Assembly: GCA_963768425.1 (NCBI GenBank)
Contig: CAVYHV010000028.1
Span: forward strand, 1 to 64,000
Reading direction: 5' to 3'
DNA: 64,000 bases
DNA from: Candidatus Bathyarchaeota archaeon
GTDB taxonomy: Archaea > Thermoproteota > Bathyarchaeia > Bathyarchaeales > Bathycorpusculaceae
The position numbers and the translations under genes are program-made. Positions 3,031 through 52,272 of the stretch are shown one piece after another; within the stretch, counting starts at the first letter, position 1, and the number at the start of each line of letters is the position of its first letter. The notes below the pieces were generated by a model. That model worked only from the letters and a program-made list of their open reading frames with translations, made no database searches and was not told the DNA's origin.

Positions 3031-3037
3031 AGATTTA

Positions 3038-3215
3038 TTATTCGGGAAATAGAAGCTTTTCACCGCACATAGGGCATTCACAGGGAATTTGTTTTGGAAG
3101 ACACTAATTCATATGAACAAGCAAAACAGAAGTATATTTGGCATTTAGGGCAGTGTTTACCAGCTCCGCCTATACTCTTTCCGCAAGCATCGCAAGGTCT
3201 CGATAAATCAACCAT
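3038..3215 (-). CDS. small four-CxxC zinc-finger protein (MVDLSRPCDAC..CPKC..CFAC..CPMCGEKLLFPE), with indel(s)
   Basis: Manual translation; absent from the ORF track. Confidence 0.6.
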
Positions 3216-4721: not shown

Positions 4722-4841
4722 AAGGGTTTGCTGAGGCTCTGGAAACTAAGGAAGAAAATTTCTTTTTTAGGAGAAAAAAGAAAATGCAAACTCTTCAATT
4801 GCAGCTATCTTGAATGTAACCAGAGCCTTCTCAGCGCCCAT
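4722..4841. repeat. ~120-bp palindromic repeat copy 1
   Basis: Near-identical to 9081-9201 and 13318-13439; ends GCTGAGGCTCTGG / CCAGAGCCTTCTCAGC are complementary. Confidence 0.95.
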
Positions 4842-4915
4842 TATTTTGTTTCTCATTGTTTTTGTTGGGACTAAAAAAAGGGAAAAGGGAATTTTTTGTT
4901 TTCCAACTTTCTTGC

Positions 4916-7694
4916 CTATGGTCGTTTTTTCAGTGTTCGCAGCACAAGCGCGCCAACTATTGTTACTGCGACTATGATGGTGATATGATGGCGATGGCTA
5001 TGTACAGAATGGAATAGCCAATTGGAGATAGCGATAGTGGCGTTGCTGTGGGTGCAATGGCAGGTGATGGTGTCGGAGTTGGACTTGGAGTTGGAGTAGG
5101 CGTTGAAGTCGGTGTTACCGGACCGCGGCTGCTTGGGTGTAGCATGTGATGTTAAGTCTGCCGGACGCAACATAGAGGTCGCCAGCGTATAGGTACAGGT
5201 GTGTTGGTTCGTTGCCAGGGACGATACGATTCTTTTGCTCCAGTGGCAGCGTTAATTACATAGACGTTGAAGGTTTCAGTGACATCATAGAGGTTTCCAG
5301 CGTAGTAGGATAATGGTGGGTCTGATTCTCTGTTAAGATATAGGTTCCAAGTGACGTTGCCGGAAACTGCGTTGAGACAAACGATATCATACCACTCGTT
5401 TAAGTATACGTTGCCTTCTGCATAGAGTACGCCTGCTACGTTTCTGTACCCCATTGGATTGCTGTTCCTGGGTCGTAGTATGCATTGTAAGTCCATTGTA
5501 TTTTTCCAGATGATAGATTCACAGCAAATGTAGCATGGTTGACCTGTTGTACAAAGGCAAGATTGTCTGTTGTGTCGACTGTTACTGGTGACTAGTATCC
5601 CTTCTCCTGTATAAGAAGCGACAGGATTATCCAGCAGCTTTGAATGGGTTCTCGACATAGGGAATTGTTATGTTGGTGATCAGTGTTCCTGTTTGTGCGT
5701 CAAGTTCGTAGAGGAAACCGTTAGGATTGGAGGTGCCCGAACTACCTACAGAACCGTCACCAGTGTCAGGTGCAATAAAGACGATGTTGTTAACGATTGT
5801 CGGTGTTCCGATTAGAGGTGCAGGTTTACCACCATTGTTACCCCAAGTGTACGACCAAATTGTCGCGCCAGTATTTGCATCTAGGCAATAGATGTAGTTG
5901 TTGTCTCCAATGTAAAGGTCGTTGCCTACAATCATCGGCGACGGTGGACCTTGTGTTCCCACGCTTCCAAAGCCGAAATTAGCGGCAACTCCTGCTGGTA
6001 TTGCTACCTTCCAGACTAAGCTGCCTGTAGCTGCGTTTAAGCAGTAGACGTTTCCGTCATCTGCGCCAGTATAGACATAACCGTTCAGTAAATGCGGGTG
6101 TGGAATAGACTGGAGCATTAGTTGTATAGTTCCAAATCACGTCGCCGTTACTTGCATTGAATGCGTAGATGTTCTTGTTTACTGAACCGATATAGCCTAT
6201 GCCATTAGCAAAAACAGGTGAACTTGCAAAAGCTGCTTCGTTGCCTAAGGGTTTATTCCATAGTACTGTTAAGTTTGTTGGTCCTACACCGCTTGAGTCA
6301 TGCGCAGCGTCATTCATGTACATTGGCCAGCTCTGTGATGCTCCATTGCCGATACATTCTACTTCTCCGAGCAATCCGATCCAGTGCCGCCAATTGCGCC
6401 TGTAGCTGTTGAGTACGTGTAACTTCCAGGTGTTGCTGATGAGGTTGTGGGTATCATGTAAAGATTGCCGTAAGCGACGCATTGGGCGTTATTTGGCGCT
6501 CCAGTTGCAATTGGAAGTGACCAAATTTCTGTGCCGTTGTAAGCATTAAAGCATTCAAACTCATTACTCCCATAGGCTCCCGTGTATGGGTTTCGGTATT
6601 GATTGTCTCCCATCTGTGCGTATATGTATCCTCCAGCTATTGTAAAAGTGCCTGAGTATCCGACGCCGTTGTTCGCTATAATGCAACCCAAACTTCTTTT
6701 CCTGTAGTAGCGTTTACCGCGTAGAAGTGTGTATCTTGGTTGTGTCCGTAGATCATTCCGTAGCTTGAACTTAGGCTCCAAGACCAACTGCTGTCAGGTG
6801 TTCCTGGATTAAACTTCCATAGGAGTTGTCCTGTAGTGATGTTCCAAGCATATATCCAGCCGTCTTCTGCTTCCGAAAGCAAAAACGCCGTCAATGGATG
6901 TAGTACCGCAAAATTCACTAAGATGGAACATAGACTGTCCATATATATGCCCCCGTTGCTGCGTTGAACCCACTGAATGTTTGGTCTGCTCCATTGCCAG
7001 AGACTATTACCCCGTCGCCATAATGCTGACACCTCGAAGTCTCTACTACATTTGGTTTTCCAGTATCGTTCCACAAGACTGTGGGTGGCTTGTGCTGGAT
7101 TGGTTAGTTCCCAACCGCATCACTTGCGAAAAACATTGGTGCTGGTAACTACTGGGGTCTGTAACAAGCGCTCCGCCGCCGCTCAGAATTTCTTGCCCTG
7201 CACTAAAAGCCTGCGGGGGCTTTCCAAACAAGTGTTCCTGTGTCAACTGTATAGCAATTTGAACCTAATAGCATGTAGTTGCCGCCTAAGTATAATGGTG
7301 ATCCTTGCAATCCAAAGAAATTAGGAATGGTGTAAACGATGTTTCCTGATCCGCCGTCCAATACAATTGTATCCGTTGTGTTTTCGACAAAGACGTAGCC
7401 ACCAAAAGCCGTCACGTCGCCAAGACTTGGTAATTAACTCCTGGAATATGCGCCGTCCACAATATGTTGTCGTTGTAGGACCTGGTCCTATAGCTGCAAA
7501 GCTTCGACTGTCATTTCCTGCAGGTGAAGCATATATGTCGTTGATTAAGCTTGGGCTAATGGTACTTCCTGAACTGCTTTGTCCCTTAGCGGAAGGAATT
7601 GTGAAGTTTGTATCATAGCTAGCATTGAAATTAACAGCAAAGCACTAATTATTACTGCAGTTGTCGGATTTCCAAGTTTTTTTGTATTTTTCAT
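4916..7694 (-). CDS. PQQ-like beta-propeller repeat surface protein (module 1), multiply frameshifted
   Basis: Signal peptide MKNTKKLG..; repeated 'VYCLNAATGSLVW' blades; P/S/T linker; C-terminal TM plus KKRP; split over many ORFs. Confidence 0.85.
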
Positions 7695-7810
7695 TTTTTC
7701 ACCATAATGCACATTGTACGATACAACAGTTTTATCACCTCTTGGAAAGAGTCCTCTTGCAAAAAGCTTTTAAAAGATAAGCAGGGAGACTTCTATTTGG
7801 TTGCGTAAGA

Positions 7811-8674
7811 TTGGAAAGAGAAAAGCTTGTTGAAAGGCTTTCAGGTTTTCTAACCCCTAATCAAGCGAAGGTCTATTCATATTTATGCGAGGTCCACGTT
7901 GCAACTATCTCCGACATTTCGAAGATAACTGGAATTCACGTTCAAGATGTCTACAAAGTGGTAGCCTCATTGGGAGAAAGAGCTAGCTTGAAGAACGAAA
8001 CACAACCGCTAACAATTGAGGCAATCCCAGTTGAGAAAGCCTTACCAAAGCTAATGAAATCAATTGAATCTAACACTTCTAAAAAAATAGAAAGATTAAA
8101 GATAAACTGTGAAGAAATCCTCGCGGAAAGAAGAAAAAATGTCAAGCCTGACACTCAAAATAAACAGAAAAATAATCCCATTATTGTTTTTTTTGACAAA
8201 GAAGCACCAGAATCAAGAGTCGACTTAGCATTCGACAGCCTGGACAAAGAATATGACTCTTTAATGATCGAGGGGAGTCCAAATTACCGTAAACTTGGTG
8301 TTGATTATGGAGAGGAACAATTTAAGAAACTCGCAAAAAGAGGCGTAAAAATAAGATTTCTGTCGCTCTCTAAAGACAAACGATTTGAAGAAGCAGAAGC
8401 ACTCAAGAAATGGGTCAAGGGAAACTATCAGATAAAAACGCTCACACTCAAAGATATACCTTTTTCACCCATGGCACTCATAGATTTCAACGAACTCTGG
8501 ATAGTCGCTTCATCGTCCACAGGAGAGGAAGGTGCGACGTTCTTAACTAACTTAAGAGAAGTGGTTGAATTGGCTAAATTTCAGTTTGAGGCATTGTGGA
8601 ATAATCCTAATACAAAGAGTATAGCGCAAAATGACTTAAACGGGAGAACCAATCGTAGCTCCAGCAACAAGTGA
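7811..8674 (+). CDS. TrmB-family transcriptional regulator
   Basis: LTPNQAKVY..ISKITGIHVQDVYKVVASL wHTH plus PLD-like effector domain (FEALW). Confidence 0.85.
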   Translation: MEREKLVERLSGFLTPNQAKVYSYLCEVHVATISDISKITGIHVQDVYKVVASLGERASLKNETQPLTIEAIPVEKALPKLMKSIESNTSKKIERLKINCEEILAERRKNVKPDTQNKQKNNPIIVFFDKEAPESRVDLAFDSLDKEYDSLMIEGSPNYRKLGVDYGEEQFKKLAKRGVKIRFLSLSKDKRFEEAEALKKWVKGNYQIKTLTLKDIPFSPMALIDFNELWIVASSSTGEEGATFLTNLREVVELAKFQFEALWNNPNTKSIAQNDLNGRTNRSSSNK

Positions 8675-8878
8675 GCTATTGTTAACTGTATTTAGGTACA
8701 GATAGGGATTACCTGAACCTGTTTCTCGGGGATATTGAACTGCTTCATCATAACTGATTTGAATATAGAAAAGGCCACTATTATTGAAGGATTCTGACAT
8801 TGTACCATAAGCCGATATTGTTATGTCGCTATTTGGAGCAAAATTAGATGCTGAAAACACGGTTAAGTAAATATCCAA
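8636..8878 (-). pseudogene. fragment of an exported protein
   Basis: S/N/Y-rich ORF remnant; upstream part has stops. Confidence 0.3.
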
Positions 8879-9080
8879 ATATTGAAACGTGGACTTGTTG
8901 AGTTCCGTAAAAAGCTATCATGTAGGGCTTTGGGTATTGAGTTTAGACTCATTCGGGTCTCGTTGGGCTGTTTGCGGTTCTGAAGACTTGGCAAAATCTT
9001 CTTTTATAATGTCAGGTGTCAAAATTAAGAAGTTTTTCCCAAAAAAAAGAAAAAAGGAATCGATGAGATGTTAGAGCATT

Positions 9081-9201
9081 AAGGGTTTGCTGAGGCTCTG
9101 GAAACTAAAGGAAGAAAAGTTCTTTTTTTAAGGAGAAAAAAGAAAATGCAAACTCTTCAATTGCAGCTATCTTGAATGTAACCAGAGCCTTCTCAGCCCA
9201 T
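9081..9201. repeat. ~120-bp palindromic repeat copy 2
   Basis: Near-identical to copies 1 and 3. Confidence 0.95.
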
Positions 9202-9282
9202 TCTTTTCATCTCTCCATTTTTTCTGTTTTTTAAAGGACTAAAAAAAGGGAAAAGAGGGTTTTGTGTTTGTCATTTTTTTCC

Positions 9283-11943
9283 TTATGGGTGTTTTCTCGT
9301 GACGAGCATTGCGACTCATGCGTGATGCCTACGATGAGGACGATGATGATGGCGACGATTCCGTACATAACTGTGGTGTTTGAGGCTAGACCTTGAACGG
9401 TGATGCTGTCGGTGCTTATTGTTGTCGAAGGAGCGTTAGCGTAGAAAGCGGATTGAGCGGAAGAGCCATAATATGATTGTGTGCCTGCGAACACTGCGGT
9501 TACAGTATAGTTGCCTGCGTATGTCAGGCTTCCAATTGAAGCTGTAAAAGCCGCTGGCAGTTGGTTGTGGTAGTGCCGATTGACCTGTAGTTGTTGTTAG
9601 AGTCTAAGACGTAAAGTGTCACTGGAACGCCTGTAAGTTGACTGGTTTTGCTTGCTGCTCGTATACATGTTCCATCCAAACTGTCATGCTTGCGTCAAGA
9701 AACGCATGGGAAGCCATGTGGGAAGTTGGCTGCAGCCTGCTTTTGGGTTGCGCCTGCGGAAATGTCCATTACTGTGCCAGTAATTGTGATCAGGTGTGGA
9801 TGTTGTTACTCCAACTCAGGAGCGTTAACTGTGGTATCGCTTGGTCCTTTGCCTGTTACGTAGATTTGGTTGTCGTAGCTGTTAAAGAAAGTCATGTAAC
9901 CGCTTGCGATTGCCGAAGACAAAGAGAAGTAGGAGTTTGTTAGGTCTGAGAGTGCCCAGACTTGTGCTCCAGTGCTAGGATTGAGAGCTGTTACGAGTCC
10001 GCCTTTGTAGATTGGCGTTTCTACTTGGTGTTGGCTTGATACGATGTAGAGTATTCCGTTGCCTACTGCGACTAATGAGTTTGGATACTGACCAGGATAT
10101 GGCAGTCCACTGCTGGTATTGTTGCCTTCTCCGCCGTTACCGTATGTCCAAAGCAGGTTTCCGTTGGATAAATCGTAGCAGTATACAAGTCCTCCTACGC
10201 CGCCAACGTATAGGTTGCCGTAAGCGATTGTTGCTGATTTCTGTGCCATCCAATTATAGTAGTTCATTGGTATTTCGGTGGAGGTTGGACCCCAAAGCTT
10301 CTGGCGTTTGGCCATGCTGTATCCAATGTACTGCATTGTTTGAACGTAATATTCGGTGAAAACCCCGACGCCTTTGTCAGCGGTTGCGTCTGCTCCGTTG
10401 TAGCCAACGGTAAGGTTGCCAGAAGGCGGCTGGACCGCGTTGCTCCAAAGTATGGAGCCTATTGCTCCTTTCGATGGGTTGAGATTAATTGCAAAGTATG
10501 TGTACGGAGAAGTGACTGGTGTAGGTCCATCAAGACTAGGCAAACATTCCTGGAAGGTTGCCTTCCAAGCATAGTAGCATGTTACCGCTAATGGCTTGTA
10601 GGATTGTAGGTGGATAAACCATTGCATTTAATGAGGGTATGGAAATGTTCCAGTTGTACATGATTGGTTCTGAGCCGTCAGTAATAGGGGGCACCACGCT
10701 AATGACTGTTGATGATCCATCGTAGTTGGGTTCCCAAAGTCGTGAGGAATTCCATTGGCTTAGGTAGTAGTTAGGTTCTATGGTGGTTCCATAATTTGTG
10801 AATGAATACGATAGAATTTCACCCATCGGGCAGCAGTTACGCCGCTTGGAATGTTTGTGACGTTGAACAGTGGTGTACCTGTATCCCCGTCAAATGCTTC
10901 CCAAGTTGTGCCTGAAACTGCGAATATCATTGGTGGAAAGACACCATGTTGGTTGGGGTCTTGTACGTCGTAAATGTAGGCGAAGGATGGTGCTGGGCAA
11001 CGTTTGAACTGGACCAGATAACTTTGCCAGTAACTAAGCTGACACAGACCGTTGGGCCATATGGTTGTGGACTCATTGCGTCTGAGACGCCGCCGTACGA
11101 TAATGGAGTAGTGTAGATTAGCATTCCGCTGACGATTATTGGGTTGTTGTATCTGCCGAGGTAAGCTGATCCATCGAAGTATGTGTCGCCTTGTATCGCT
11201 GAGTTGTTTCCGCCTACGACTCCGCCGCTTTGAAGTGGTGTTGTCCACATAATGTGCGCTGTTTGAGACCCGATTGCGTCGCCTGGGTTTCCCACGTCCC
11301 ATCCTTCGTATCCTCCCATGTATCCTGGGTACCCGGTGCCTAGCCAGTTTGAGGCTATGGGTGCCCAATTGGTGTTTTCACCGTAGATTGGGAATGTCCA
11401 GAATGAGGTCGGAAGCGGAGTTTCGGGAGTTGTGCCTGTTGGGGCCTTTTGAACAGTCAGAGTCGTTGTCGATGAACTGGGCATATAAATATCGTTTGTA
11501 TAGGCACTTAGGTCAAAAGGAAACATCCCAACGAAAGTTCCGCTCCAAGTGTAAATCTGTCCAGGATAATTGAAGGTAAAGGTGTAAGTGCCAGTCTGGG
11601 TAGGGCTAAATGAATAAGCTTGGTTTGATGTGGGATCTGACACCACTGCCCAGCTTTCGGTTGTGTTTGTACCATCCGGTGCAGTGATGATGAGTTGATA
11701 GTTGTGTGCTCGAATGTTATTGCTCAAGTCTGCGCCATACATCACTTCATCTATCCACATATAAACGATCACTGTCTGACCCACGCCTACGGGGTTAGGC
11801 GTAGCCTGCACATAGGCTGATGTCGGTATTTGCATTGGGGTGCTTGCGTTAGCGCTTGGTATTAGCAACATTGAAGCAGACATTGAAAACATTAAGAATG
11901 CAGCGATTGCAATAGTCGCAATTCTTTTTCTTAAATTTTTCAT
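9283..11943 (-). CDS. PQQ-like beta-propeller repeat surface protein (module 2), frameshifted
   Basis: Signal peptide; PNPVGVGQ Ig-like N-domain; PLPTSFWT, TAHIMWT motifs; propeller blades; TM plus RKHP. Confidence 0.9.
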
Positions 11944-12146
11944 TTGTTTTTTTTATCTCCTTTAAATTTGATGTTACGCGCTATTATTGCTTCAAATATA
12001 TATCTTTTTCCCAAAAAAAGGTCATTATGTTAAAATAGCTCTAAAAAAAATGTTAAAGATACAGATATTTGCATAGGCAATTCTAAAATAATTAATAAGG
12101 CTTTTTCAAAATACATTAATAAAGCTTTAAGAACAATAAACCCTGA

Positions 12147-13137
12147 ATGTCAATAAAGATTGATCATTTCGATTTGATAATATTAAGAGAACTTCTCCTC
12201 AACGGCTGTAAAACTTTCACTCAAATTGCAAATGAACACAATACAACTAAAGAGATAATCGCTAACCATTTTAAAAAAATGACCAAAAAAGGAGTAATTG
12301 TTGGGTCAAGCATCAGAAACAGTGTTATTTGCTATGGTTGTAACTTTATTGTTCTTATCTTTATTAAGAGTCAACCCCAAAAATTGATTCAAATATGTGA
12401 ATATGTTTCAAAAATTCCAGGGATCAGCGTCGCTTATCCCTATAGAGTTAAGCGAACCTGTTTTGCTGCCGCAGTCCTAAAAAACATAGGGAGCTAATAA
12501 AATAAATTATTTATTAAGAAAAATCCCGTTCATCGAAGAAATGGACACTAGAATCGTAACTGGAATGAGAACCGCTCCCTACAACCTATCAATTTTTCCA
12601 AAAGAAGATAATATCCCCGTTACCAAGCAAAATGAAAATATGGTGCAAAAGGGGAGCGAAGAAATCAAAATCGATGAAACCGATAAAGGTATTATCGAGA
12701 GACTGGCAGCAAATGGGCGCATCCCTTTTAGCAAAATCGCAAAGGACCTAAGTGTTTCGACAAATCATATTGTTAAAAGATACGAAATGCTAAAAAACAA
12801 CGGCGTAATAGTTCCCACTATTCAGATAGATCCAACCAAAATCGGTTACTATAGTTTCGCGTTCATTAGTTTAGCTTTTTCTTCAACGAACCTGCATTCT
12901 GGCTTAGAATTCCTTAAGAAATATCCGGATTTTAATGCTATATACAAGACAAGCGGAAAATTTGACGCTGTCGCAATCTTTATGATTAGAGACCTCGAGC
13001 ACCTGATGAATATGCAAGAAGAAATAATGAATTTACTGGGAGTAACAAATGTGGAAATAGAAGTCACCAGGTTATTCAACGTTTGGCCGCCATCAAGAGA
13101 AACATTTTTGCGTCATAATGAATTAGATTTAGAGTAA
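12147..13137 (+). CDS. tandem-domain Lrp/AsnC-family regulator, frameshifted
   Basis: Two AsnC HTH plus RAM units (IDHFDLIILREL; IDETDKGIIERLAANGRIPFSKIAK). Confidence 0.85.
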
Positions 13138-13193
13138 TTTTTCAGGCTCTAGTTTTTTATGCGAAAAAGGACAGAGATACATCAACAAAAATC

Positions 13194-13289
13194 TCATTCT
13201 TCAGGAAATAGTAGCTTTTCACCGCACATAGGGCACTCCAAAGTTGATTTCTTTTGCAAGTGCACGTACGCTGCTTTTTTCTCCCTCAA
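13194..13289 (-). pseudogene. 3' remnant of a zinc-finger gene (..LECPMCGEKLLFPEE*)
   Basis: 36/39 nt identical to 3041-3079. Confidence 0.6.
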
Positions 13290-13317
13290 AAATCCAGTTT
13301 TGTCTGTCTTGAAAGAA

Positions 13318-13439
13318 AATGGGTTTGCTGAGGCTCTGGAAACTAAGGAAGAAAATTTCTTTTTAGGAGAAAAAAGAAAAATGCAAACTCTTCAATTGCA
13401 GCTATTTTGAATTTAACCAGAGCCTTCTCAGCCCCATTT
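13318..13439. repeat. ~120-bp palindromic repeat copy 3
   Basis: Near-identical to copies 1 and 2. Confidence 0.95.
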
Positions 13440-13514
13440 CTTTTCATCTCTTCATTTTCATGGTTTTAAAGGACTAAAAAAAGGGAAAAGGGGATTTGTT
13501 TTGTTGTTTTTCGT

Positions 13515-16310
13515 TTATGGGTGTTTTCTTGTGACGAGCATTGCGAGTACTGCGCCGATGACGATTATGATGATGGCGATTGCTACGATTCCGTATTCGA
13601 CTGTGGTGTTTGAGGCTAAGCCGTTGAGCGGTGTTGCAGTTGGTGCTGGTGTTGCTGCTGGTGAGCTGGCGTAGAAGTGCTGTTTCAGCGGATGATCCGT
13701 AGTATGCTCCTGTGCCTGCGAAAGTGGCGTAGACTGTGTAGTTGCCTGCGATGTCTGGTGTCCATGTGTAAGCCAAAGTGCCGCTTGCATCAGTGGTTGT
13801 TGTGCCGATTGATCGGTAGTTGTTGTTGCTGTCTAAGACGTAGAGCGTAACTGGAACTCCTGTTATGTTGGTTGGCATTGGCTGTTGCTCATAAACTGCT
13901 TCCATGAACTGTGTCATGCTTGCGTCAGAGACGCATGGTAAACCGTTGGGGAAGTTTGCTGCGACTGCTTCTTGCTATGAGCCGGCAGAGATGTCCATCA
14001 CTGAGCCTGTTATTGTAATTGGTGTAGAAGTTGTCACGCCAATGTTAGGTGCTGTAATAGTGGTTATGCTTGGTCCTATGCCATAACGCGTATATCTGGT
14101 TGTCGTATGAGCTCTCTGTCACCAAAACTCCATCGGAAATAGCTGAACCGCCATCAACGTCAAAAGCCTAATATGCTCCATACTGGTTGTCCATTAGTAA
14201 TGTTTATTGCTAATTTAGCTAGCTCCGCGGAACAGCGGTGGACTGTATTCATGTCCTTCGCCCAGGAATAGCATTCCATCAGCAAGAGCCCCTTGGTTTC
14301 CGAATGGCCAAAGTGGCCATACACCATAAGGGCTGTCAGTTCCGGCAGGACCAGAGATTGCGTTTGTAGTAGTATGCCACAATGATGGTGCCTGTCTTTA
14401 TGTTAAAAGCATATATGTCTCCTCCGAAACCACTTATGTAGAGCATACCGTTGGCAACTTGGCCGTAATAGCTACCAATTGAATTGTAGGAATCAGCGAT
14501 TGGAAGTGTGACTGGTCCCCACAATTGTTTGCCCGTATTGATACTGTAACCATTGCATGCGGCTGTTTCTTGGTTGACTTCAACGTAGACACCATTCGAA
14601 ATCGGCATGAAGTCAACTCTTGAGAAGGGCGCTTCTGTTCGATTGGCTATCCATAGCAGTTGCCCGGTGGTTGTGCTGTAGCCTGCCTCATCTATGAATC
14701 CGCTTTGGTAGAAGGCTCCTGCGGCGTTGTAAGACCATAATAGTATTACACCGCTGTTGATAGGCCCATCCATTCCGTTTCCCCAAGAGCCAAGAGGGGA
14801 GAGTAGCGATGGAAAACTTGTGATGCTTGTATCTAATTGAGTGTTCCAAACTACTCCATCACCGAAAGGAATGATGCCGCCTTGTGGGGGTCTCCACTCC
14901 CACCCTGCGGATTGTGCAGCCCAACTGGCCGCCAAGATACATTCTGTTGAGTTCCACTCATTTAAGGAGGGCCCAGTAGTTGTAACGAGGGTAGGTGCAG
15001 GTCCAATATTAATGTTGATTGTGCCCATCACTGTCTGCGTGCCAGCGGTTTCGTTAACGTAGTAGCCTATTAAGTTTCCATTTGCATCTTCAGTAAGTGT
15101 CATATGCGGTTCCGTCTACAATGCTGAGTATGTATGTTCCAGTCATGGCGTCAAACATGTTCCATGTGCGTTGACTCCATGTGGCAGACGTTAATGCGAG
15201 GACCAGCGGGTGTTCCGGTTGCTCCACAAGTATGCAATAGCCCCGAATTGGTTCGGCGAAACGTAATCGAGCATTTGACCGCACCGTAGAACAGTAACTA
15301 CGCCAGCTGATGTTAGAGCAGTTTGCGGTCGAAGAACCGCCACCGTAGTTGGCGCCATCTGTCAGTCCATATTGTTTTCCCTGTTTTCAGGTTTACGGCA
15401 ACTATGCCTGTTGGAGTTGTTGAACTTCCGGGTATTCTGTGTAGTAGAGAATGCCTTGCATTATTACGGGCGCGAACATTCTTTCATACTGCCTTGTTGA
15501 GTAATAATTGGTTGCTGGGCTGCCGCTTGTGCTGAATTCACCGCCAATAACTCCTCCGAATGCTTCAGGAATAGTCCACAGAATGTGTGCAGTGGTCGGC
15601 GCTGTAGTATATGGATTATAATCTCCACTGGCATTGTACATTCCTGTGTTTGCCTCAAATAGTTCGCCGAGTCCAAGCCAGTTTCCGCTGATAGCGCCCC
15701 ACATGTCGTTGACTGATTCGATTGGTCGCGTCCAGTAGCTTGTCGGGAGCGGAGCTTCCGGAAAAGATGGCGTTGCAGTCTGTTGAACAACGAGTGTTAC
15801 TGCGGTGCTAGTGCTAGGTTCATAATAATCGCCGATAAATGGGACACCGTAGATCAACTGGAAGATATATGCACCACCTGAAGATGGTGGAGCAGGGTTG
15901 TTGCCTGCTAATATCTGCCCTGAAAAGCTCATTTGGAAAGTATAATTTCCGACTGTAGTAGGCGTGTAAGTAGCATGACTTCCTCCTGTATCATCGGATG
16001 TAAAGGGACCTAATGTTTGAGTATTGCCGTTTGGTTCAGTTACTTTCACGGTCATGTTCTGCCATCTGTCACCATATTGACCACTCGCAGTAGGTGGCGG
16101 CTGAGCAAGCCAAAAACCAATGTTAACCGCTTGGCCAAGGCCTGCGGGGCTAGGTGCAACGTTAATGAAAGCATAAGTTGGAATAGATATTTTACCTGGC
16201 GCCAGAGTTACCGCGTTAGCATTTGGTATTGACATCAGTGAACTTGTCATTGACAAAGTTAAGATTGTAGCAATAATAATGGCTATACTTTTATTCTTTA
16301 TTTTTTTCAT
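13515..16310 (-). CDS. PQQ-like beta-propeller repeat surface protein (module 3), frameshifted
   Basis: Signal peptide; PSPAGLGQ, PLPTSYWTRPI, TAHILWT motifs; C-terminal Ig-like domain, TM and RKHP; paralog of module 2. Confidence 0.9.
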
Positions 16311-16478
16311 TTTTTTTCTTTCCTTTTTTTCTGTAAAGAACAAATTGTGGGCTGAAAATTCTTAAAATCGAGTGGTGTATCATCGACCCCGCAGGGCTTT
16401 ATGTTGCAACAATCAGCAATAATAATCGAATATTTTGAAATCAATCTAAGATAAATAGAAGAAAGTGCATCATGATGA

Positions 16479-17331
16479 ATGTCCAAAATGTCGAAGTCAA
16501 ATGACAGTCTATTGGAGAACCTGCAAAAGCTTGGACTAACTATGCTGCAGGCAAAAATCTACACGGTTGTTTTAGATGCAGGGAAAGAAAAAATACAAAC
16601 TATCTCAAAAATTGCAAACGTAGACCGATCAAACACTTATCGAACAATCCTTCACCTACAAAATATTGGTTTAGTCGAAGAAACGTTGGGCTCACCAAAT
16701 ATCTATCAAGCGATTCCTGTCAAAGATGCTGTTTCAATTCTGATAGATCTCAAACAAAACGAATTTGAAAAAATGCAAAAAGTTGCAACAAAATTGATGC
16801 GAAAAGGCTTTCCCAGATGATTCTGGGTTTTTCGGAAAAGAATACGAATTCAAGATACTTAAGATGATGGGACAAAGATCATCAATCAAATTGGTAATTG
16901 ACGTCTGCAGAAGTTCTCATGAAAGTTTCGACCTTGTAAACAACAAACACACATTTTGTGATACTGTGATTGATTTAGCTGAAGAACACTTAACCTGTCT
17001 TAAGCGAGGAATTAAATACCGGATGGTTGTCGAAAAAACATGTTCGAAGCCTATACTAAAAAAACTTGCCATGTTTATGTCGGAACCAAACTTCCGAATT
17101 AGGTTCATTGCCGAGGCGCCTGAGGCAGAAATGGCAATTCTCGACAAAAAGGTTGCCCATGTAGACGTCTTGCCATACTTAACAGCAAAAGGAGGAAGAA
17201 CCCAGCTAATTACTAATCATCCAGCGTTCATAAAAATATTTCAAAATCATTTTGACAAAATTTGGAACGAAGCAGAAGAATACAGCCTCACAAACAATCA
17301 AGCAATTACAAAAAAAGCAGCAAACAAATAA
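16479..17331 (+). CDS. TrmB-family transcriptional regulator, frameshifted
   Basis: LGLTMLQAKIY..ISKIANVDRSNTYRTI wHTH; C-terminal FDKIWNEA. Confidence 0.85.
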
Positions 17332-17801
17332 TGTTGCCACAGAAATTCGAATTAATGACGTTCAGTTCATACATTTACTAGTCAAGATGAGTTCGAATCC
17401 GTTCTCCATGCCTGCCTTCTATCTTATGAGATAAGTCTTTTCGCAATAAGTGCTCACAATCAGGAGCGGTCCGAACCCTACGCGGTTCAAATCCCCCCAG
17501 TCCACTTTAACCAGTTTCGAGTCTCTGCGCCAGAGTAAAATTACACACTTGCTCGTTAAATTTGGGATTCACCTAAATAATCAAGAACATCCCACCGGAC
17601 TCCCCCTTAAGAAACTGGACTGGTTTTGGAAATCCGTTGCTGGAGACATATATCACCCGTTTTTAGGTCCAAAACAACCCATAGGATTACATATTAAAAA
17701 GGAAGATTCTTAAAAATGCAAGAAGCGAACTGACGGTTTAAACGAGAGTTAATGATCTTGAGCGAAACAAGGGTTGTTAAAACCCCACAGTTGCTTGAAA
17801 A

Positions 17802-19163
17802 TTAAGCGCTAATCTTGCTTTGCTCCACTTTTTCTTTCACGTATTTCTCGTATCTCAACTTTTCCAGAAAATCCAGTAACCGCTGAGCGTCGCTTTCCGT
17901 TTCCACAACGTCAGCTAAGTTAACATACTTTAAGAATAAATCAAGGGTGCCTTTAACGGACTTGTAGTCATTTTGTGTTTTTGTTATTTCTTCCTTCTGT
18001 TGGGCTAGTTCCGCCTGGTGTTTGGTTGTTAATTCTGCAAGCTGGCTCTCGGTTCTTTTCAGTTTAACAACTAAATCAGTGGTGACAGATTCTATTTCCT
18101 TAAGCCGCTCACCTTCCTTGTTTGGGGCGTTTATGCTGATTAATTGCTCCCTTTCCATGTACATTTTACGCAAACTGTCGTACTGTACGGTCTTGTACGC
18201 TTCAGCCATTTCACCTATCTCGTGACCTAACCAAAAATCAACAATAGTATCCGGCACACCGCTGTTTATCATTAAAGAGCCAAAACTTTCCCGCAAGCTA
18301 TGAGTACCCAAAGGATTGAAGTCGTTTCCATTGTTTTCTTTTGTTACAAACCCAGACCTTACAACCAATTCTTTCATCATTTCGCAAATGTTGGCCGTTC
18401 TGAGTCTTTTCTTTCCTCTGTCTTGAAGGAAAAGCGGGGTTCTATTGTCAAACTTGACACCTCTGCTTTGCACGTCAGCCAAATAAGCTTTCAAGGCAGT
18501 TATTCCATCTTTGGCTATGAACGTGTAAAACTCTATCCCAGTTTTCACGCGCATAACTTGAATTCTAAGAGGCTCTTCTCCTTTAGCCAATCCTTCCGCT
18601 ATGTCGCCATAATCCAAACTACACATTGTGCTAACATCCATTCCACCTTGAAAATGACAGAGCACAATAGCCCTATCTCTTGGCGTTCGAGCGTTATCCA
18701 CTAATACCTTAACTTTCCAAACATCCTCAGGTTTGAAAATAATGCGTTTATTTTCCACTTTAGACTTAGGAAGCTTGTTTCTCCCCTTCAATTTTACGAC
18801 TATGTCGTACGTAGCATAGAAACTGCGTATGGTGTTAACCCCTAACTCAGCGGACCGCCCTGTCGTGCCTTTTTTGCCTTTGTACTTTCCCAGCTTCTTA
18901 ATGTGGTCATTTTTTAGCCAATTATAAAAACCAATTAGTCTTTTGATAACTAGGTCTTGTCGTTCTCTTGGATCTCGTTTAAAATCCTCTACCGCTTCAT
19001 CGATAAGTGCTGAAGCCGTTTTTCCAGTGTACAATGCATATAAACGATAAGACACTTTGTAGCTTTTGACCGTCTTTTCGTTGGACATTCCGCCGAGCCA
19101 ACGTTGTAACGTAGGGTCATCCCAATCAACTCCATCCTTACCAATTGTCATTCTGGTTACCAA
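17802..19163 (-). CDS. tyrosine recombinase/integrase with C-terminal coiled coil
   Basis: RDRAI, RVKT, HSLRES, LGH, AY motifs; N-terminal SAM-like domain. Confidence 0.92.
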   Translation of the reverse strand: MVTRMTIGKDGVDWDDPTLQRWLGGMSNEKTVKSYKVSYRLYALYTGKTASALIDEAVEDFKRDPRERQDLVIKRLIGFYNWLKNDHIKKLGKYKGKKGTTGRSAELGVNTIRSFYATYDIVVKLKGRNKLPKSKVENKRIIFKPEDVWKVKVLVDNARTPRDRAIVLCHFQGGMDVSTMCSLDYGDIAEGLAKGEEPLRIQVMRVKTGIEFYTFIAKDGITALKAYLADVQSRGVKFDNRTPLFLQDRGKKRLRTANICEMMKELVVRSGFVTKENNGNDFNPLGTHSLRESFGSLMINSGVPDTIVDFWLGHEIGEMAEAYKTVQYDSLRKMYMEREQLISINAPNKEGERLKEIESVTTDLVVKLKRTESQLAELTTKHQAELAQQKEEITKTQNDYKSVKGTLDLFLKYVNLADVVETESDAQRLLDFLEKLRYEKYVKEKVEQSKISA

Positions 19164-19331
19164 TAACTAGTAATACAAAAGTAATATTAAAGTTTTTAAT
19201 CTACAAGTTAAATTTAGTGAAGTAATCCAACTATTTTATTTCAAATTTTTACTGCATCGCTTAGAAACAGTTTAATTCTTAGTCAAGACGGGATGTAAGG
19301 CTTTTTCTGATTAGACCTCCGATAAGCCGTA

Positions 19332-19538
19332 ATGATATTGGAGGTAGGGAATGTGAGTGAGGTAGTGGTTGGTTTGGACGTTCACTTGAAGAATGCTCAG
19401 GTGACCGTCATGAAGTCGAATGGTGAGGTTGTTAAGAAAGAACGAATTAAGACGTGTAAGGCTGAGCTTCGAAGGTCCTTGGAGACTGTGCCAAAGGGAG
19501 GGTTGCGTTGGAGTCTGTATGCGTGTTGGATGACCTAA
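19332..19538 (+). mobile_element. IS110-family transposase N-terminal fragment
   Basis: VVGLDVH RuvC-like first motif; truncated after ~55 aa. Confidence 0.7.
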
Positions 19539-19595
19539 TGGATCGAATACTTCTGCACGTTGCTTGTCCAGCTCAATCTGCTTTTCGTCTTCCAC
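19520..19595 (-). pseudogene. ArsR-family regulator N-terminal fragment
   Basis: RAEVFDPLGHPTRI; abuts the IS110 fragment. Confidence 0.55.
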
Positions 19596-19813
19596 CTTCG
19601 CACATCCTCAAGCGGCCATATTCAACTCATATCTAAAAGCCTATCTAATCCCTCTTTTGTAGACCAATCCGAACGTCAATTAATGCTTAGTCCAGTTTGG
19701 TAGACAAGCGATAAACTTCTTAGGCTTGCCATGTTCTAACATGTAGCATTAAGTAATGCCAAACATTGATTCCGAGATGTTAACGGTAAATTTACAAGAG
19801 CAGGAGAGTTAAG

Positions 19814-21397
19814 GTGAAAAAACAATTAGCAATAGTTTTATCGCTTGTGATAATCACCGTTATTGCAGTTTCATCGTTTGCCGCTATAAAAGATTACCAA
19901 CCTTCTTCCACTTATGTTGCAGTTGATAAGAAGCCATTTTATGTGGGGGTTACATTCGGCGGCGATTCGGTCGCAGATGCGGAGCAATTGATTGATAAAG
20001 TCAAGGATTACACTAACCTGTTTGTATTGGCGTCTGGTCCACTTATGCAAAACGTACCCGCTACAGAACAGATTGGTGATTACGCCGTTAACGCAGGATT
20101 AAATGTAATATTGTATTATGGTAAAAGCGGCGACCCTAGTACTTGTGTGTCTCTGCTCAACCTTGCTAAAGCTCGTTGGGGCAGCCATTTTTTGGGGCTA
20201 TACTACCAGGATGAACCAGGAGGCAACATGCTTGATTCCCAAGTACCGATTAATGGATAAGGTTGGCACACACGCCATTTTTTCACCAAGGACACAAACG
20301 GAACAATTTGGGAAGCAAATAGTTTCTCAGAAGGATCAAATTACACTATGGTCAACGTTTCTTTTCAACCTTCAGGAATAATCAATTTGCAAACCTCAAC
20401 CGCAATATCAACAAACAGTAGTACAACTACAACCCCGCTTCTTCCAGAACCTAACGACTTTCAAATCTTGCCAAATGGAACAATCGTAAATTCCGGTCCC
20501 CCTCCGGGCAACTTCATATCTATTTCAAGCGTTTTGACTTATTACCCTAATGGGACAATTAGCGGCACGTTTGACAACGGCACCTCAACAACAGGACCGC
20601 TAAACTACTTTCCAGATGGGACCGTGCAGTATGAAAACGGCACATACGTGGCTAATGAAGGCAATATTTCTCAATTTGAACCTTACCAGCAACTCTGGGA
20701 TTCTAATCCAATTCAAACCTACACTGAAGCAGCAAACTACTTTGTGAATACCGAGCATGCTGCATTGACTTCGATTTGCAATGAATCAGATGTTAGGCTT
20801 TTCACCTCAGACTATGGTCTCTATTGGTTCGATTACCTTGGAGGCTACAATACTGTGTTTGCTGAGTTGTTTGGGGGGCAAACAGATGCTCAGACCATAG
20901 CCTGCGTTAGAGGTGCCGCCGACATGCAGAATAAAAGTTGGGGAGTGATGCTTGAGCCATCGAGTCAGTTGCCGCTTGCCTTACAAAGTGGAACTCAACT
21001 GTACAATGAATTGGACCAATCTTATTTGAGCGGCGCCGATTATGCTGTAGTATTTAACTACTCGCCGTATGATAACGCCACCGGTCTTTTGCAAGACCAA
21101 CAGTTCTCTACGATTCAAAAGTTCTGGAAGGATGTCGTACAGAATCCTGAAGAAACTAATAACGTGACGGCGCAGGTTGCGTTGATTTTGCCTAATGATT
21201 ACGGTTGGGGTATGCGCAACGAAAATGACACCATATGGGGCATATGGCAACCCGGCACCAGTTCACAACAAATTTGGAACTCAGTGCAACAATCCCTTGC
21301 CCAATATGGTTCAAAACTTGACATCATCTACAATGACCCAGCATACCCAACAGCGGAAAGATACCTGCATGTTTACTATTGGAACCAAACCGTCTAA
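19814..21397 (+). CDS. secreted protein, possible TIM-barrel/glycoside-hydrolase-like fold; frameshifted
   Basis: Signal anchor; FLGLYYQDEPGG and LFTSDYGLYWFDY motifs; ORFs 19814..20260 and 20348..21397. Confidence 0.75.
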
Positions 21398-21654
21398 AGC
21401 GGCTGTGAACGCTTAGCACTGAAGCTTGTGCTTATCTTTCTTTTGTAATCATTTTATCATTGAATTCCTCTTTTGCGGATTTAATGAAAAAATCTTTGAA
21501 TTCTCAGTGGAGTTTTCATGAAGATAGGTCTTAAATCCGCATGACGGAATAACGGGCTAAATATTGAAAAAGAAAAGCGAAGAGAGTAAGAGGAGATAAT
21601 GTAGATCCACAGCCTTGAAAGATCTTATATGCAACTCACTCTGTAAAAATAGGA

Positions 21655-22005
21655 TTGATGGCGAATCGAATGGGAGAAAAAACAATACAATCAATACCTG
21701 TTATGCCCTTCGCATTGATGATAGCTGTTATCTCGGCGGTTATAGGACTAATAATCGGAATCATCTACGCGGGAGTGTTTGGAGTTATACTCTCTACAGT
21801 CTCTCATAATACTGGAGTCGCTGGTCTTGGTTTGCTAGGCATTCTATTTGGTGTAGGGGCAGTAATAATAATGCCAATACTGGGATTCATAGGCGGTCTG
21901 ATACAAGGCATCATAATTGCAGTTCTTTATAATTTTCTTGCACCGAGAATTGGCGGAATCAAACTTCGCTTCAAAGAAGAAGATTACAAACCGCCTCAGC
22001 AATAA
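21655..22005 (+). CDS. small membrane protein (DUF3566-like)
   Basis: Two TM helices; YNFLAPRIGGIKL C-terminal motif. Confidence 0.75.
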   Translation: MMANRMGEKTIQSIPVMPFALMIAVISAVIGLIIGIIYAGVFGVILSTVSHNTGVAGLGLLGILFGVGAVIIMPILGFIGGLIQGIIIAVLYNFLAPRIGGIKLRFKEEDYKPPQQ

Positions 22006-22152
22006 CTTCCCTTCTTTTTCTTTTGCGATTAGCACGAACGGTCAGTAACCCTTCTTTTGTTTTCTTGTTCCCACAAAGTTTCCCGAGTGACAATAACATA
22101 AAAAAAGATTGACTGAAAAATCTTAAACCTGTTTAGCATTGAAATAAGCTAC

Positions 22153-22330
22153 GTGGAAATCGAGTAAGAAACTGTCCTGATTTTTCTGTGAAAATGGAGA
22201 TTAGTAAAATGAATCTTAAAGTTGGCGGATTTATTTTTGGAAGACGGGGAGATATCAATGAAGACACGTTTCCAGCTGTTGTTTATACTTGCCCTTGATG
22301 TGGGAAATTAGAGTTTTTGCCGTGAACAAA
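22153..22330 (+). pseudogene. degraded zinc-ribbon protein gene
   Basis: CPD..KME..VGG..VYTCP*CGKLEF remnants with a stop and frameshifts. Confidence 0.35.
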
Positions 22331-22513
22331 ATCAATGTATGTGTTTGCGGCCATTCAAAAGAGCAGCATCTAAACTGGCAATATAATTGCACTAGGAAAA
22401 TTGCAGTTGCAAGACATACTCATAGCAAGTCTAAGCTGGACTCAGTATTGAATCTGAATAGGTTTCTAAAATCATTTAAGCAAGGTCAAAACAAATACGA
22501 GATTAGTGGAAGC

Positions 22514-22780
22514 ATGAAATCTGAGTTTAAACTAATGATTTTCTTTAACGCCGTGTTTGCAGCGTTCTATTTGCTTTGGAATTGGAATGAATATTCAACA
22601 TTAAGCCCTCTATACCAAGTAGCTATAAGTGCACACTTTCCTTGGTATATTCAGTTTAGTGGCACCCCGGATGGAAATGGTTTAGTGGCGTTTTTTGATG
22701 CTAATTTTGGTCTCTTTATACTCTTATTCGTGATATTCGTAAACCTATGCTTAGCATACAGACTCCAAAAAAGCAAGTAA
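22514..22780 (+). CDS. two-TM membrane protein
   Basis: Likely start MKSEFKL within ORF 22289..22780. Confidence 0.65.
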   Translation: MKSEFKLMIFFNAVFAAFYLLWNWNEYSTLSPLYQVAISAHFPWYIQFSGTPDGNGLVAFFDANFGLFILLFVIFVNLCLAYRLQKSK

Positions 22781-46626: not shown

Positions 46627-46681
46627 ATTTTCACCATTTTATTTTATAAGTACATACTTGCTCAGCTGAATATAAATATGG

Positions 46682-46697
46682 TTGTGATTTGTTCATA
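46682..46697 (-). promoter_or_regulatory. regulon motif TATGAACAAATCACAA just upstream of a TATA box
   Basis: Five copies at the same spacing from TATA. Confidence 0.75.
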
Positions 46698-46795
46698 ATA
46701 TTTCATAAACACTAAACAACCGTCTAAATCCCAACAGAAAATTTATATGGAATAACAACCATTATAACATCAACTAAAACAGAAGGAAAAATAAA

Positions 46796-47126: not shown

Positions 47127-47426
47127 TCAGCTCCAGTTGTCCTGGAGGAGCTTGGCCATTTCTTCTGGACATTTTGGTCCTTTGTGTGCTTTAAGAACGA
47201 TGGAGCTAACGGTGCTTTTTACGCCTTTTATTTTCATGATTTTGTTTTTGAGGATATCACGGAATTCTTCGATGTCTGCTGCTGATACCAGGGTTACGAT
47301 GTCGAATTCGCCTGTGACTTCGTACAGTTCTTCAAGATGTTCTAGTTGGGCAAGCGAGATTAAGACATTGTCCATTTCTGGGGATTCTACAAATATGTCC
47401 ACGAATGCTAATAGTTTTGGCATATT
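47127..47426 (-). CDS. stand-alone Lrp/AsnC RAM domain protein
   Basis: YEVTGEFDIV..IKGVKST. Confidence 0.9.
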   Translation of the reverse strand, partial: NMPKLLAFVDIFVESPEMDNVLISLAQLEHLEELYEVTGEFDIVTLVSAADIEEFRDILKNKIMKIKGVKSTVSSIVLKAHKGPKCPEEMAKLLQDNWS

Positions 47427-47569
47427 GGTCGTCTTGCTTATCTGAACATGAGTTCGGATATTTATACTTTTCTCGCCATGCAGCACAATTACTTTCATCA
47501 TTGCCCTACAATTGCACAGCAAATCAACTTAATAGTTGGACAATGTTAAAAAAGCTGCCGCTAACATTC

Positions 47570-51984: not shown

Positions 51985-52272
51985 CTAAGTGGTTGATGTA
52001 ATGTTGGTTTTTTCTTGGCACCTTGGTCCTTTATGAGGCTGCAATATTATAGTGCTTATGGTGCTTTTTACGCCTTTAATTTTCATGATTTGCTTCTGCA
52101 GAATATCTCGAAATTCTTCAAGCGTTGAAGTGCAAACTAGGGTGACGATGTCGTATTCGCCTGCGACTTCGTAGACTTCTTCAATGTTGTTAAGCTTTGA
52201 CAGAGCAGCTAATACATTGTCTATTTGTGTTGACTCGGCGAAGATGTTGACTGAAGCTAAGAAACGGCTCAT
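51985..52272 (-). CDS. stand-alone Lrp/AsnC RAM domain protein
   Basis: Close paralog of 47127..47426 (IMKIKGVKST..HKGP). Confidence 0.9.
   Translation of the reverse strand: MSRFLASVNIFAESTQIDNVLAALSKLNNIEEVYEVAGEYDIVTLVCTSTLEEFRDILQKQIMKIKGVKSTISTIILQPHKGPRCQEKTNITSTT

Follow-up and report, generated by a model that had tools for sequence, protein, structure and literature searches.

The stretch of DNA analysed here, referred to below as the window, comprises 64,000 nucleotides (64 kb) of contig CAVYHV010000028.1 from a Candidatus Bathyarchaeota archaeon (assembly GCA_963768425.1). Three genes for surface proteins with a PQQ-type beta-propeller lie on its minus strand, and each is followed, 76–83 nt past its stop codon, by a copy of the same element of about 116 nt. 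This element is a structured RNA on the strand of the surface-protein gene and, as far as checked, it appears to represent a previously undescribed structured RNA family. The first-pass annotation of this DNA had counted three repeat units, and an exact-word search of the 64-kb window indeed finds exactly three copies, all in one shared orientation. The left-edge 23-mer occurs at positions 4724, 9083 and 13321 (0.00 expected by chance) and the right-arm 18-mer at 4818, 9180 and 13415 (0.03 expected by chance). The covariance model described below recovers the same three sites and no others at E<=10.

The copies are nearly invariant beside divergent genes, as had been remarked before. Over the ~116 nt of the element, copies 1 and 2 are 95.0% identical, copies 1 and 3 94.9%, and copies 2 and 3 92.5%, compared with 54%, 54% and 74% over the final 600 coding nucleotides of the neighbouring genes. 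The spacer between the element and the stop codon is 68–84% identical. In self-blastn, the stretch common to copies 1 and 2 is 4722–4931 only, that is, the element and its spacer. Past the stop codon, copy 1 has no blastn similarity to copies 2 and 3, and genes 2 and 3 share ~800 nt at 78%. The left edge is abrupt, at GGG, in agreement with the sharp edge described in the first pass. The description of the element as a palindrome of ~120 bp applies to its ends, which form a 16-bp closing stem with two bulges; the interior is not palindromic.

Structure and Strand of the RNA

Read 5' to 3', the RNA consists of the closing stem, hairpin 1, hairpin 2, a U/C-rich single strand and the return strand of the stem. 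The very stable closing stem, 16 bp in total, has the outer helix GGG/CCC, the central helix GCUG/CAGC and an inner helix, with a 3-nt bulge (AGA or AGU) in the 5' strand and another (AAA) in the 3' strand. Hairpin 1 is variable in sequence, CACGAU...AUCGUG being its commonest form, whereas hairpin 2 carries the loop UUUGCAUU. The U/C-rich segment contains CUCCU and lies within a hairpin loop in the subtype found in the window. RNAalifold applied to plain MAFFT alignments detects the closing stem only; the inner hairpins required a hand-drawn seed structure and a covariance model.

The fold is supported by covariation. Family-wide counts, here and throughout, refer to copies or loci among the matches listed. 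Across 96 distinct model-aligned rows, 93.2% of the cells are paired, compared with 81.3% in shuffles, and the covariation score is 0.225 versus 0.070 in shuffled alignments, with none of 500 shuffles as high; slid partners score 0.02–0.08. Two-sided changes are found in 19 of the 29 pairs, including 7/7 pairs of one hairpin and 6/6 of the other.

The strand can be read from the mismatches. In the seeds aligned by MAFFT only, A.C accounts for 17 of the 31 non-pairs on the plus strand, while the same cells read on the minus strand hold 14 G.U, with 7 non-pairs remaining. The two hairpins of the model-fitted set contain 89 G.U versus 25 A.C. This asymmetry between G.U and A.C places the RNA on the minus strand, that of the genes.

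Several candidate features of the RNA were rejected. A small open reading frame (ORF) on the plus strand (AGGAG followed by AUG) and another on the minus strand (AUG after the leader) have neither a conserved AUG nor a conserved frame. K-turn, C/D-box, H/ACA and hammerhead motifs, compared by eye with their general consensus sequences, do not fit. Extension of the outer helix by the flanking sequences does not go beyond cross-locus controls (−5.55 versus −5.01 kcal/mol).

Distribution of the Family

Relatives were collected by scanning species-representative genomes with a single gapped pattern in which the two inner stem arms are combined. The scan gave at least 113 loci, at least 90 of which belong to at least 39 Bathyarchaeia/Bathyarchaeota assemblies, and the richest assembly has at least 8. 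The assembly count takes in one 2.8-kb contig binned as Nitrospiraceae (L050). This contig, of 2798 nt and labelled as a metagenome-assembled genome (MAG), carries the RNA together with an anchor-type gene end typical of Bathyarchaeia, and it is probably mis-binned. The remaining 23 loci among the matches listed are GC-rich and bacterial and have nothing in common beyond the pattern. According to the record titles, the element-bearing MAGs come from peat, fen, bog and soil.

A covariance model (R1) was built from a seed of 11 sequences with the hand-drawn seed structure. R1 gives 97 matches in 91 family sources and no significant match in the 23 chance bacterial loci. After removal of one antisense echo and one overlapping locus, 95 distinct copies remain, namely the 3 of the window and 92 in 90 loci of 39 assemblies. 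Three of these copies deviate from the exact pattern and were found by the model only, one owing to a stem in which GGCUUUGG/CCAAAGCC is a compensatory change. The real RNA family is probably broader than the recovered set.

At gathering thresholds the element matches nothing in Rfam 15, whose families cover tRNA, C/D and H/ACA sRNAs, self-cleaving ribozymes and riboswitches among others, and the best match at E<=10 is PyrR, with 27.4 bits against a threshold of 54. Focused Rfam scans of locus L070 and of window positions 9000–9300 give nothing above 22 bits. We found no description of the element in the literature, in a search that lay outside bioRxiv supplements and metagenome and viral collections.

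Association with the Surface-Protein Genes

The position of the RNA relative to one gene family is well defined. Among the 89 copies with the required 200 nt upstream, a hydrophobic membrane anchor with a basic tail is encoded upstream of 63 when the longest ORF is tested and of 66 when any frame is accepted. The C-terminal anchor of the gene family ends in RK[RKH]P; the tails counted are RKRP (30), RKHP (14), RKKP (7) and KKRP (3), and the gene end lies 59–95 nt from the stem (median 71). With 200 nt required on each side (87 copies), a same-strand upstream anchor gene is present in 65 copies, and an opposite-strand anchor gene at the other end of the element in 3. Long upstream ORFs (at least 300 amino acids, n = 38) contain PQQ_2 in 37 cases and Big_3_5 in 22. 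The first-pass annotation had considered a cis element tied to this gene family, and named dispersal independent of these genes as a refutation; the association holds on these counts, and independent dispersal is not what the loci show. In the window, all three PQQ-anchor genes carry the RNA and there is no further member of the gene family. Window copy 2 fails the anchor test because a frameshift sits in its anchor. Known models of C-terminal sorting signals do not match any of 6 intact homologues.

A block composed of a C-run, T5-10 and AGUC lies within 140 nt upstream of the RNA in 66 of 89 copies, and its 18-mer is identical in all three window copies. It is a candidate gene terminator and/or TATA-like element for the RNA. 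About 21 of the 89 copies have no anchor gene upstream, and for these TATA-like boxes can be seen by eye 25–55 nt upstream. In three loci the RNA occurs in tandem with no protein gene between the copies (L054, 1991–2120 and 2256–2359; L044, 1986–2096 and 2339–2454; L091, 132–253 and 286–404), the second copies being without the exact search pattern. Stand-alone copies and RNA-only tandems, together about a fifth of all copies, indicate that the RNA is a unit of its own, which usually stands behind a PQQ-anchor gene.

Two further features of the surroundings were observed. Tandem Lrp/AsnC genes accompany the RNA, as they do copy 3 of the window, in eight loci outside the window (L003, L019, L034, L036, L044, L060, L070, L088), convergent with it in five and divergent in three. 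We did not count this adjacency as evidence of a functional link, as Lrp genes are dense in the window (3 in 64 kb). Downstream of the RNA in several loci (L046, L049, L100, L108, L112, L060/L061, L042, L068, L076), there is a moderately conserved trailer, UAAAUGCUCUAAGAUGUCACC... with a U-run behind it, after which a convergent tRNA-like gene ends; the Rfam tRNA threshold is reached only in L076. Window copy 2 has a similar trailer and no tRNA, and its minus-strand U6 and U8 runs lie ~25 nt beyond the 3' end of the RNA (plus-strand A-runs near 9040–9060).

Concerted Evolution of the RNA Interiors

Over 38 loci, protein and RNA distances are uncorrelated (Spearman r = 0.095; Mantel 171/2000). 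Near-identical RNAs stand beside proteins with only 34–53% identity; in one genome, for example, loci L040 and L051 have an RNA identity of 0.92 and a protein identity of 0.34, and the tandem pair L062/L063 has values of 0.89 and 0.39. Conversely, in the pairs L063/L077 and L031/L077 the proteins are 90–94% identical and the RNA interiors only 0.56–0.58. Interior identity averages 0.708 within an assembly versus 0.588 between assemblies, a difference reached in none of 5000 permutations, and for 30 of 80 copies the nearest RNA neighbour comes from the same assembly, compared with 2.4 expected. The orthologous loci L031 and L077 illustrate the boundaries of this effect. Their homology, 85–87% on either side, extends to the end of the 5' stem arm; the interior is unalignable, and homology returns 300–800 nt downstream.

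The RNA interiors follow the genome and not the gene, and this implies concerted evolution or cassette-like replacement between the conserved stem arms. The simplest cause would be gene conversion ending in the invariant stem arms. The window copies are near-identical beside divergent genes because the interiors are homogenised within the genome. Of the shuffled cassettes suggested in the first pass, the part that stands is exchange or homogenisation of the RNA interior, independent of the gene bodies; the link to a recombinase does not. We speculate that the neighbouring tyrosine recombinase plays no part in the homogenisation.

Geometry of the Closing Stem

The bulge-helix-bulge (BHB) motif, a substrate of the archaeal splicing endonuclease, consists of two 3-nt bulges on opposite strands, 4 bp apart, with flanking helices (PMC7714728). 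Drawn with a 4-bp central helix, the closing stem has this layout. Two opposed 3-nt bulges are present: the 5' bulge has 3 nt in 93 of 95 copies (AGA 57, AGU 26, other 10), and the 3' bulge is AAA in 90 of 95. The central helix is GCUG/CAGC in 88 of 95, the position closing the 4-bp register is A-U in 79 and G.U in 13, and the arrangement of 3 nt, 4 bp and 3 nt is retained in 92 of 95 copies. Both bulges are flanked by helices (h and h'). The inner one comprises 8 bp plus the A-U or G.U closing pair, and 99.9% of the cells of the 8 bp are paired; for the outer 3 bp the figure is 81.8%, with double changes in each of the three pairs.

Folding of two local intron-bearing tRNAs, meant as a BHB reference, gave structures too ambiguous for this use. 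tRNAs near the loci are few (Rfam, 3 in 15 loci; ARAGORN, 2 in 60 loci). In the window itself, ARAGORN reports no tRNA or tmRNA. An intron-bearing tRNA at 62571–62736 on the plus strand, missed by ARAGORN, is recognised by Rfam with 32.8 bits; it has CCA in the anticodon region and is likely a tRNA for Trp. The intron contains the 12-mer AGGGUUUGCUGA, which equals the plus-strand edge of the element and is complementary to the 3' end of the RNA. This match may be due to chance (~0.03 expected in the window, an estimate).

Neighbouring Genes in the Window

The features of the locus are collected in Table 1. PQQ_2/PQQ and Big_3_5 matches and the C-terminal anchor bear out the initial description of the minus-strand genes as beta-propeller surface proteins. 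Gene 1 encodes a signal-like N-terminus, the PQQ-type beta-propeller, a Thr/Pro linker and the membrane anchor with the end ...LKKRP. The genes are broken, a point absent from the first-pass annotation: gene 1 consists of at least 8 reading-frame pieces, and genes 2 and 3 have at least 5 frameshifts each. The tblastn pieces of gene 2 fall in frames -2, -1, -3, -1, -2 and -3, with one frameshift within the anchor, and the best relative of gene 3 matches at 64% identity over 244 amino acids, in one piece. Homopolymer errors were rejected as the cause: the junctions lie away from long homopolymer runs, and the intact genes hold more such runs per kb. In the same window, kdpA (50264–50866 and 51414–51932) and kdpB (48335–49000 and 49265–50218) are also fragmented, while ~10 kb of other long genes are intact. 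Since kdpA and kdpB at 48.3–51.9 kb are broken too, the frameshifts are not peculiar to the surface-protein modules. They could reflect either real pseudogene decay or consensus error.

Table 1. Features of the three modules and the adjacent recombinase gene in the window
Feature	Position	Strand	Remarks
RNA copy 1, 116 nt	4724..4839	-	Covariance model 60.3 bits, E 2.9e-13
RNA copy 1, 5' arm	4820-4839	-	Outer helix, 4-bp central helix, 3-nt bulge, inner 8-9-bp helix
RNA copy 1, beyond the 5' arm		-	Two hairpins, U/C-rich CUCCU segment, return arm with AAA bulge (4724-4742)
C-run/T-run block, copy 1	4870..4887	-	CUUUUCCCUUUUUUUAGU on the minus strand, between stop codon and RNA
Surface-protein gene 1	4916..7694	-	Pfam PQQ_2/PQQ in fragments; stop codon 4916-4918
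TrmB-family regulator	7811..8674	+	Divergent from gene 1; Pfam TrmB 1.8e-06
RNA copy 2, 117 nt	9083..9199	-	Covariance model 62.9 bits, E 6.3e-14
C-run/T-run block, copy 2	9238..9255	-	
Surface-protein gene 2	9283..11943	-	PQQ propeller, immunoglobulin (Ig)-like domain, anchor ...AMLVTRKHP
Two Lrp/AsnC-family ORFs	12147-12497, 12541-13137	+	Pfam and NCBIfam matches
RNA copy 3, 115 nt	13321..13435	-	Covariance model 71.8 bits, E 3.5e-16
C-run/T-run block, copy 3	13473..13490	-	
Surface-protein gene 3	13515..16310	-	N-terminal domain, PQQ propeller, Big_3_5 Ig-like domain, anchor ...AMLVTRKHP
TrmB-type helix-turn-helix ORF, then a further ORF	16479-16820, 16864-17331	+	Pfam TrmB 2.1e-16; weak TbsP-like match
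Tyrosine recombinase	17802-19163		Phage_integrase 1e-13

Each module of 4.2–4.4 kb contains a gene of the same PQQ-anchor family and a divergent regulator, and the regulators are not homologous between modules. The reported change of regulator family, from TrmB to a double Lrp and back to TrmB, was recovered with Pfam and NCBIfam. The two Lrp/AsnC ORFs are divergent from gene 2 and convergent with RNA copy 3. The last two ORFs before the recombinase, at 16479–16820 and 16864–17331, are divergent from gene 3 and may be one split regulator. ORF 13159–13410 was discarded as a spurious reading of element copy 3 itself. The gene remnants reported to the left of copies 2 and 3 are supported for copy 3, where the C-terminus of a zinc-ribbon protein (...ECPMCGEKLLFPEE) lies at 13196–13260, directly past the RNA; for copy 2 the claim found no support. 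A second zinc-ribbon C-terminus occurs on the minus strand at 3037–3100, the nucleotide identity being 83–91%, and neither belongs to an intact ORF.

The tyrosine recombinase, correctly placed within 0.5 kb of the last module, starts 471 nt beyond it and has a C-terminal extension of ~115 amino acids past the catalytic domain. Six ORFs of 87–349 amino acids around it (17450–22780) match neither Pfam nor PHROGs, and among the ORFs of this region the PHROGs search gives no phage-family match apart from the two integrase matches of the recombinase. Elsewhere in the window, a 48-nt A/T-rich repeat with the core TGTGATTTGTTCATA is intergenic at 46669–46716, 52503–52550 and 55804–55851. A pair of 177-nt repeats with 75% identity lies at 47159–47335 and 52008–52184, one of them within the AsnC-type ORF 47127–47522.

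Discussion

We propose, with moderate confidence, that the element belongs to a gene-linked family of structured RNAs that is homogenised genome by genome, the shape of its stem suggesting excision at a BHB motif. Transcription would proceed by read-through of the U-run of the gene or from a TATA-like box of the RNA's own. The splicing endonuclease would then excise the RNA at the BHB, and the tRNA ligase would probably circularise it. The product would be a stable RNA of ~100 nt whose amount follows the expression of the surface-protein gene. More speculatively, its exposed CUCCU segment might pair with purine-rich, Shine-Dalgarno-like sequences.

Several observations weigh against this explanation. 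We infer BHB processing from the shape of the stem alone, and the central helix can also be drawn with 5 bp and the bulge shifted by one, a non-canonical form that is RNAalifold's version; the 4-bp and 5-bp registers are equivalent through bulge migration. In the pre-tRNA intron at position 37/38, each bulge lies 3' of its central-helix strand. Measured against this rule, taken here as unconfirmed, the element has its bulges on that side on the minus strand only and not on the plus strand, in agreement with the wobble pairs. The U6-7 run between the gene and the RNA could end transcription before the RNA is reached. The search pattern fixed 21 closing-stem bases, and the invariance of this stem across loci is partly a matter of ascertainment. 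The alignment used to measure covariation had been fitted to the model; without such fitting, the seed of 11 sequences, 97.8% paired and with 3 pairs showing double changes, points in the same direction more weakly. A locus-specific pairing of the purine-rich leader (GGAGAAAAG) with the interior (CUUUUCUCC) was rejected, the complementarity being only general: leader and interior of one locus give −10.31 kcal/mol, those of different loci −10.23 and shuffled ones −8.63. Finally, the surface-protein genes of the window are broken, so that the RNA may outlive its genes here or the assembly may be faulty.

The alternative to be taken most seriously, plausible although we doubt it, is that the element acts in cis at the 3' end of the mRNA, as a stabiliser, terminator or protein platform, with structural bulges and no functional free RNA. 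Its constant place on the same strand, 59–95 nt (median 71) past the stop codon, would fit such a role, as would the very stable 16-bp stem in the 3' region of the transcript and the tolerance of interior replacement, as if mainly the stem counted. However, this explanation has difficulty with the ~21 of 89 copies that have no upstream gene and with the RNA-only tandems in three loci. The UUUGCAUU loop, the CUCCU segment and two covarying hairpins are also more than a stabiliser requires, and all but 3 of the 95 copies preserve the exact spacing of 3 nt, 4 bp and 3 nt. A bolder possibility, which we regard as rather improbable, is a new class of BHB-bounded RNA cassette that is intron-like, excised and circularised, and moved or copied between surface-protein loci via its stem arms, with feedback on the repertoire. 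If so, a single homogenised "house" version would be present in each genome, and the repertoire of surface proteins would be read out by the circular RNA or be subject to feedback from it (CUCCU pairing with ribosome-binding sites is one example), and BHB splicing would extend from tRNA and rRNA maturation to a mobile regulatory RNA family. It is improbable, too, that the element is selfish, that is, a DNA repeat of the MITE (miniature inverted-repeat transposable element) or REP (repetitive extragenic palindromic) type or a mobile BHB-intron-like element without benefit to the host. Conserved terminal arms around a variable interior, closer similarity within than between genomes, replacement of the interior at orthologous loci and the presence of several copies in one genome (at least 8 in the richest) are what such an element would show. 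MITE- or REP-type repeats, however, are expected at unrelated sites, in either orientation and between target-site duplications. No such duplication is found here: the longest direct repeat in the flanks averages 3.66 nt in 95 copies versus 3.60 (standard deviation 1.08) in cross-locus controls. The orientation to the gene (65 versus 3 of 87) and the distance from the stop codon (59–95 nt) are fixed, covariation and G.U strand bias operate at the RNA level, no transposase lies nearby, and the phage and plasmid collections searched contain no match to the element. Nor did any empty site turn up, in a sample too limited to reveal one.

A transcript of the opposite, plus strand, convergent with the surface-protein mRNA and partly antisense to its 3' end, is very unlikely. 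Such a small RNA would fold equally well (z-scores of −3.28, −1.73 and −2.67 on the plus strand versus −3.22, −0.34 and −2.43 on the minus strand), and it would have an AGGAG with an AUG 7–9 nt later and T-rich sequence past the element. However, the AUG varies (AUA, ACG and AUG-UAA occur), the hairpin mismatches are A.C on this strand (17 of 31 non-pairs) where the minus strand has G.U, and only on the minus strand does the register-closing position show A/G variation opposite an invariant U. If the above rule applies, a tRNA-type BHB would also require the bulges on the other side of the central helix. Still harder to credit is an integron- or Xer-like system in which the repeats are attC or att sites and the recombinase at 17802–19163 excises or reorders gene-plus-regulator cassettes. 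On the surface, the layout is like that of a chromosomal integron, in that near-identical imperfect palindromes of ~120 bp stand at the 3' ends of the units, reminiscent of the Vibrio cholerae repeats (VCR), and a tyrosine recombinase lies 471 nt from the last module. Archaeal integrons are on record as well (PMC9668308). But the best NCBIfam match of the recombinase, NF040815 (archaeal XerA/integron-integrase), scores 67.1 bits where the cut-off is 220, models of integron integrases give no match at E<=0.01, and the 2-kb flanks of the other loci contain a single, weak relative. In addition, the units are large, of one gene family and with their own non-homologous regulators, unlike short cassettes of unrelated function, and the element sequence is conserved over at least 39 assemblies with an RNA-type strand asymmetry. 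Together with these scores, the covarying hairpins, the G.U bias and the missing target-site duplication leave unsupported the idea of the first-pass annotation that the repeat is a recombination or end site of mobile cassettes.

Bathyarchaeia are abundant and uncultured, and to our knowledge almost nothing has been reported on their non-coding RNAs. The gene-linked RNA family that we favour provides a concrete, sequence-defined candidate substrate of the splicing endonuclease beyond tRNA and rRNA. The tight link to one family of anchored propellers and the homogenisation of the RNA genome by genome suggest a circuit that regulates the cell surface or controls its quality. The element is also a clean natural case of concerted evolution of an RNA module beside diverging protein genes. 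For annotation, the model tells an RNA gene apart from labels such as repeat or attC-like site, and it removes spurious ORFs of the kind found at 13159–13410.

Comparison with Known Systems

Concerted evolution is familiar from rRNA operons and tRNA gene families, where exchange is bounded by conserved segments. As in these families, the copies of the element stay alike within a genome while species diverge. In contrast to them, the copies are attached to divergent protein genes and have no known function.

The element resembles REP sequences, bacterial interspersed mosaic elements (BIMEs) and MITEs, which are short intergenic repeats with inverted-repeat ends located after genes, several per genome and closer within a genome. 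It differs from them in that its orientation and distance are fixed to one gene family, without target-site duplication, and in having a covarying three-helix interior and few copies per genome. Another parallel is the omegaRNA or reRNA (right-end RNA) of IS200/IS605 tnpB, a multi-copy structured RNA of ~100–150 nt directly 3' of its gene on the same strand; circular isoforms reportedly occur in archaea (PMC12558985). However, there is no transposase or nuclease gene and no evident guide segment at the element, and the propeller protein encoded beside it, being secreted and membrane-anchored, probably does not bind RNA in the cytoplasm.

In integrons, the integrase is a tyrosine recombinase with an additional domain specific to IntI, attC sites are conserved between hosts in structure rather than in sequence and show no signal at the RNA level, and the cassettes are short, mostly promoterless ORFs. 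The element shares with attC arrays (VCR-type in Vibrio; archaeal integrons in PMC9668308) the imperfect palindromes of ~120 bp at the 3' ends of units and a recombinase nearby. In contrast to those arrays, the recombinase stays below the cut-off of the integron/XerA model, each large unit holds a gene of one family and brings its own regulators, and the cross-species conservation of the element comes with RNA covariation and strand bias. Outside the window, most copies occur singly and have no recombinase beside them.

The closest relatives in kind are the BHB-containing RNAs other than tRNA, for which PMC7714728 lists processing stems of rRNA, an intron in the 5' untranslated region (UTR) of Haloferax HVO_1309 and the intron of crenarchaeal cbf5; outside tRNA and rRNA, documentation is so far limited to single cases, the last two. 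The element shares with these RNAs the opposed 3-nt bulges with flanking helices, 4 bp apart in one of the two registers of its stem, and release of the enclosed RNA, perhaps followed by circularisation, would be expected here too. It sits in a non-coding part of the transcript, as does the HVO_1309 intron. It differs in place: it stands behind a stop codon or alone, outside any tRNA, rRNA, coding region or 5' UTR. In addition, it is multi-copy and tied to one protein family, with cleavage predicted from shape, and its enclosed part has conserved hairpins and motifs of its own. A BHB-bounded, excised RNA is thus known as a kind; as far as checked, a multi-copy version that is linked to a gene family and evolves in concert would be new.

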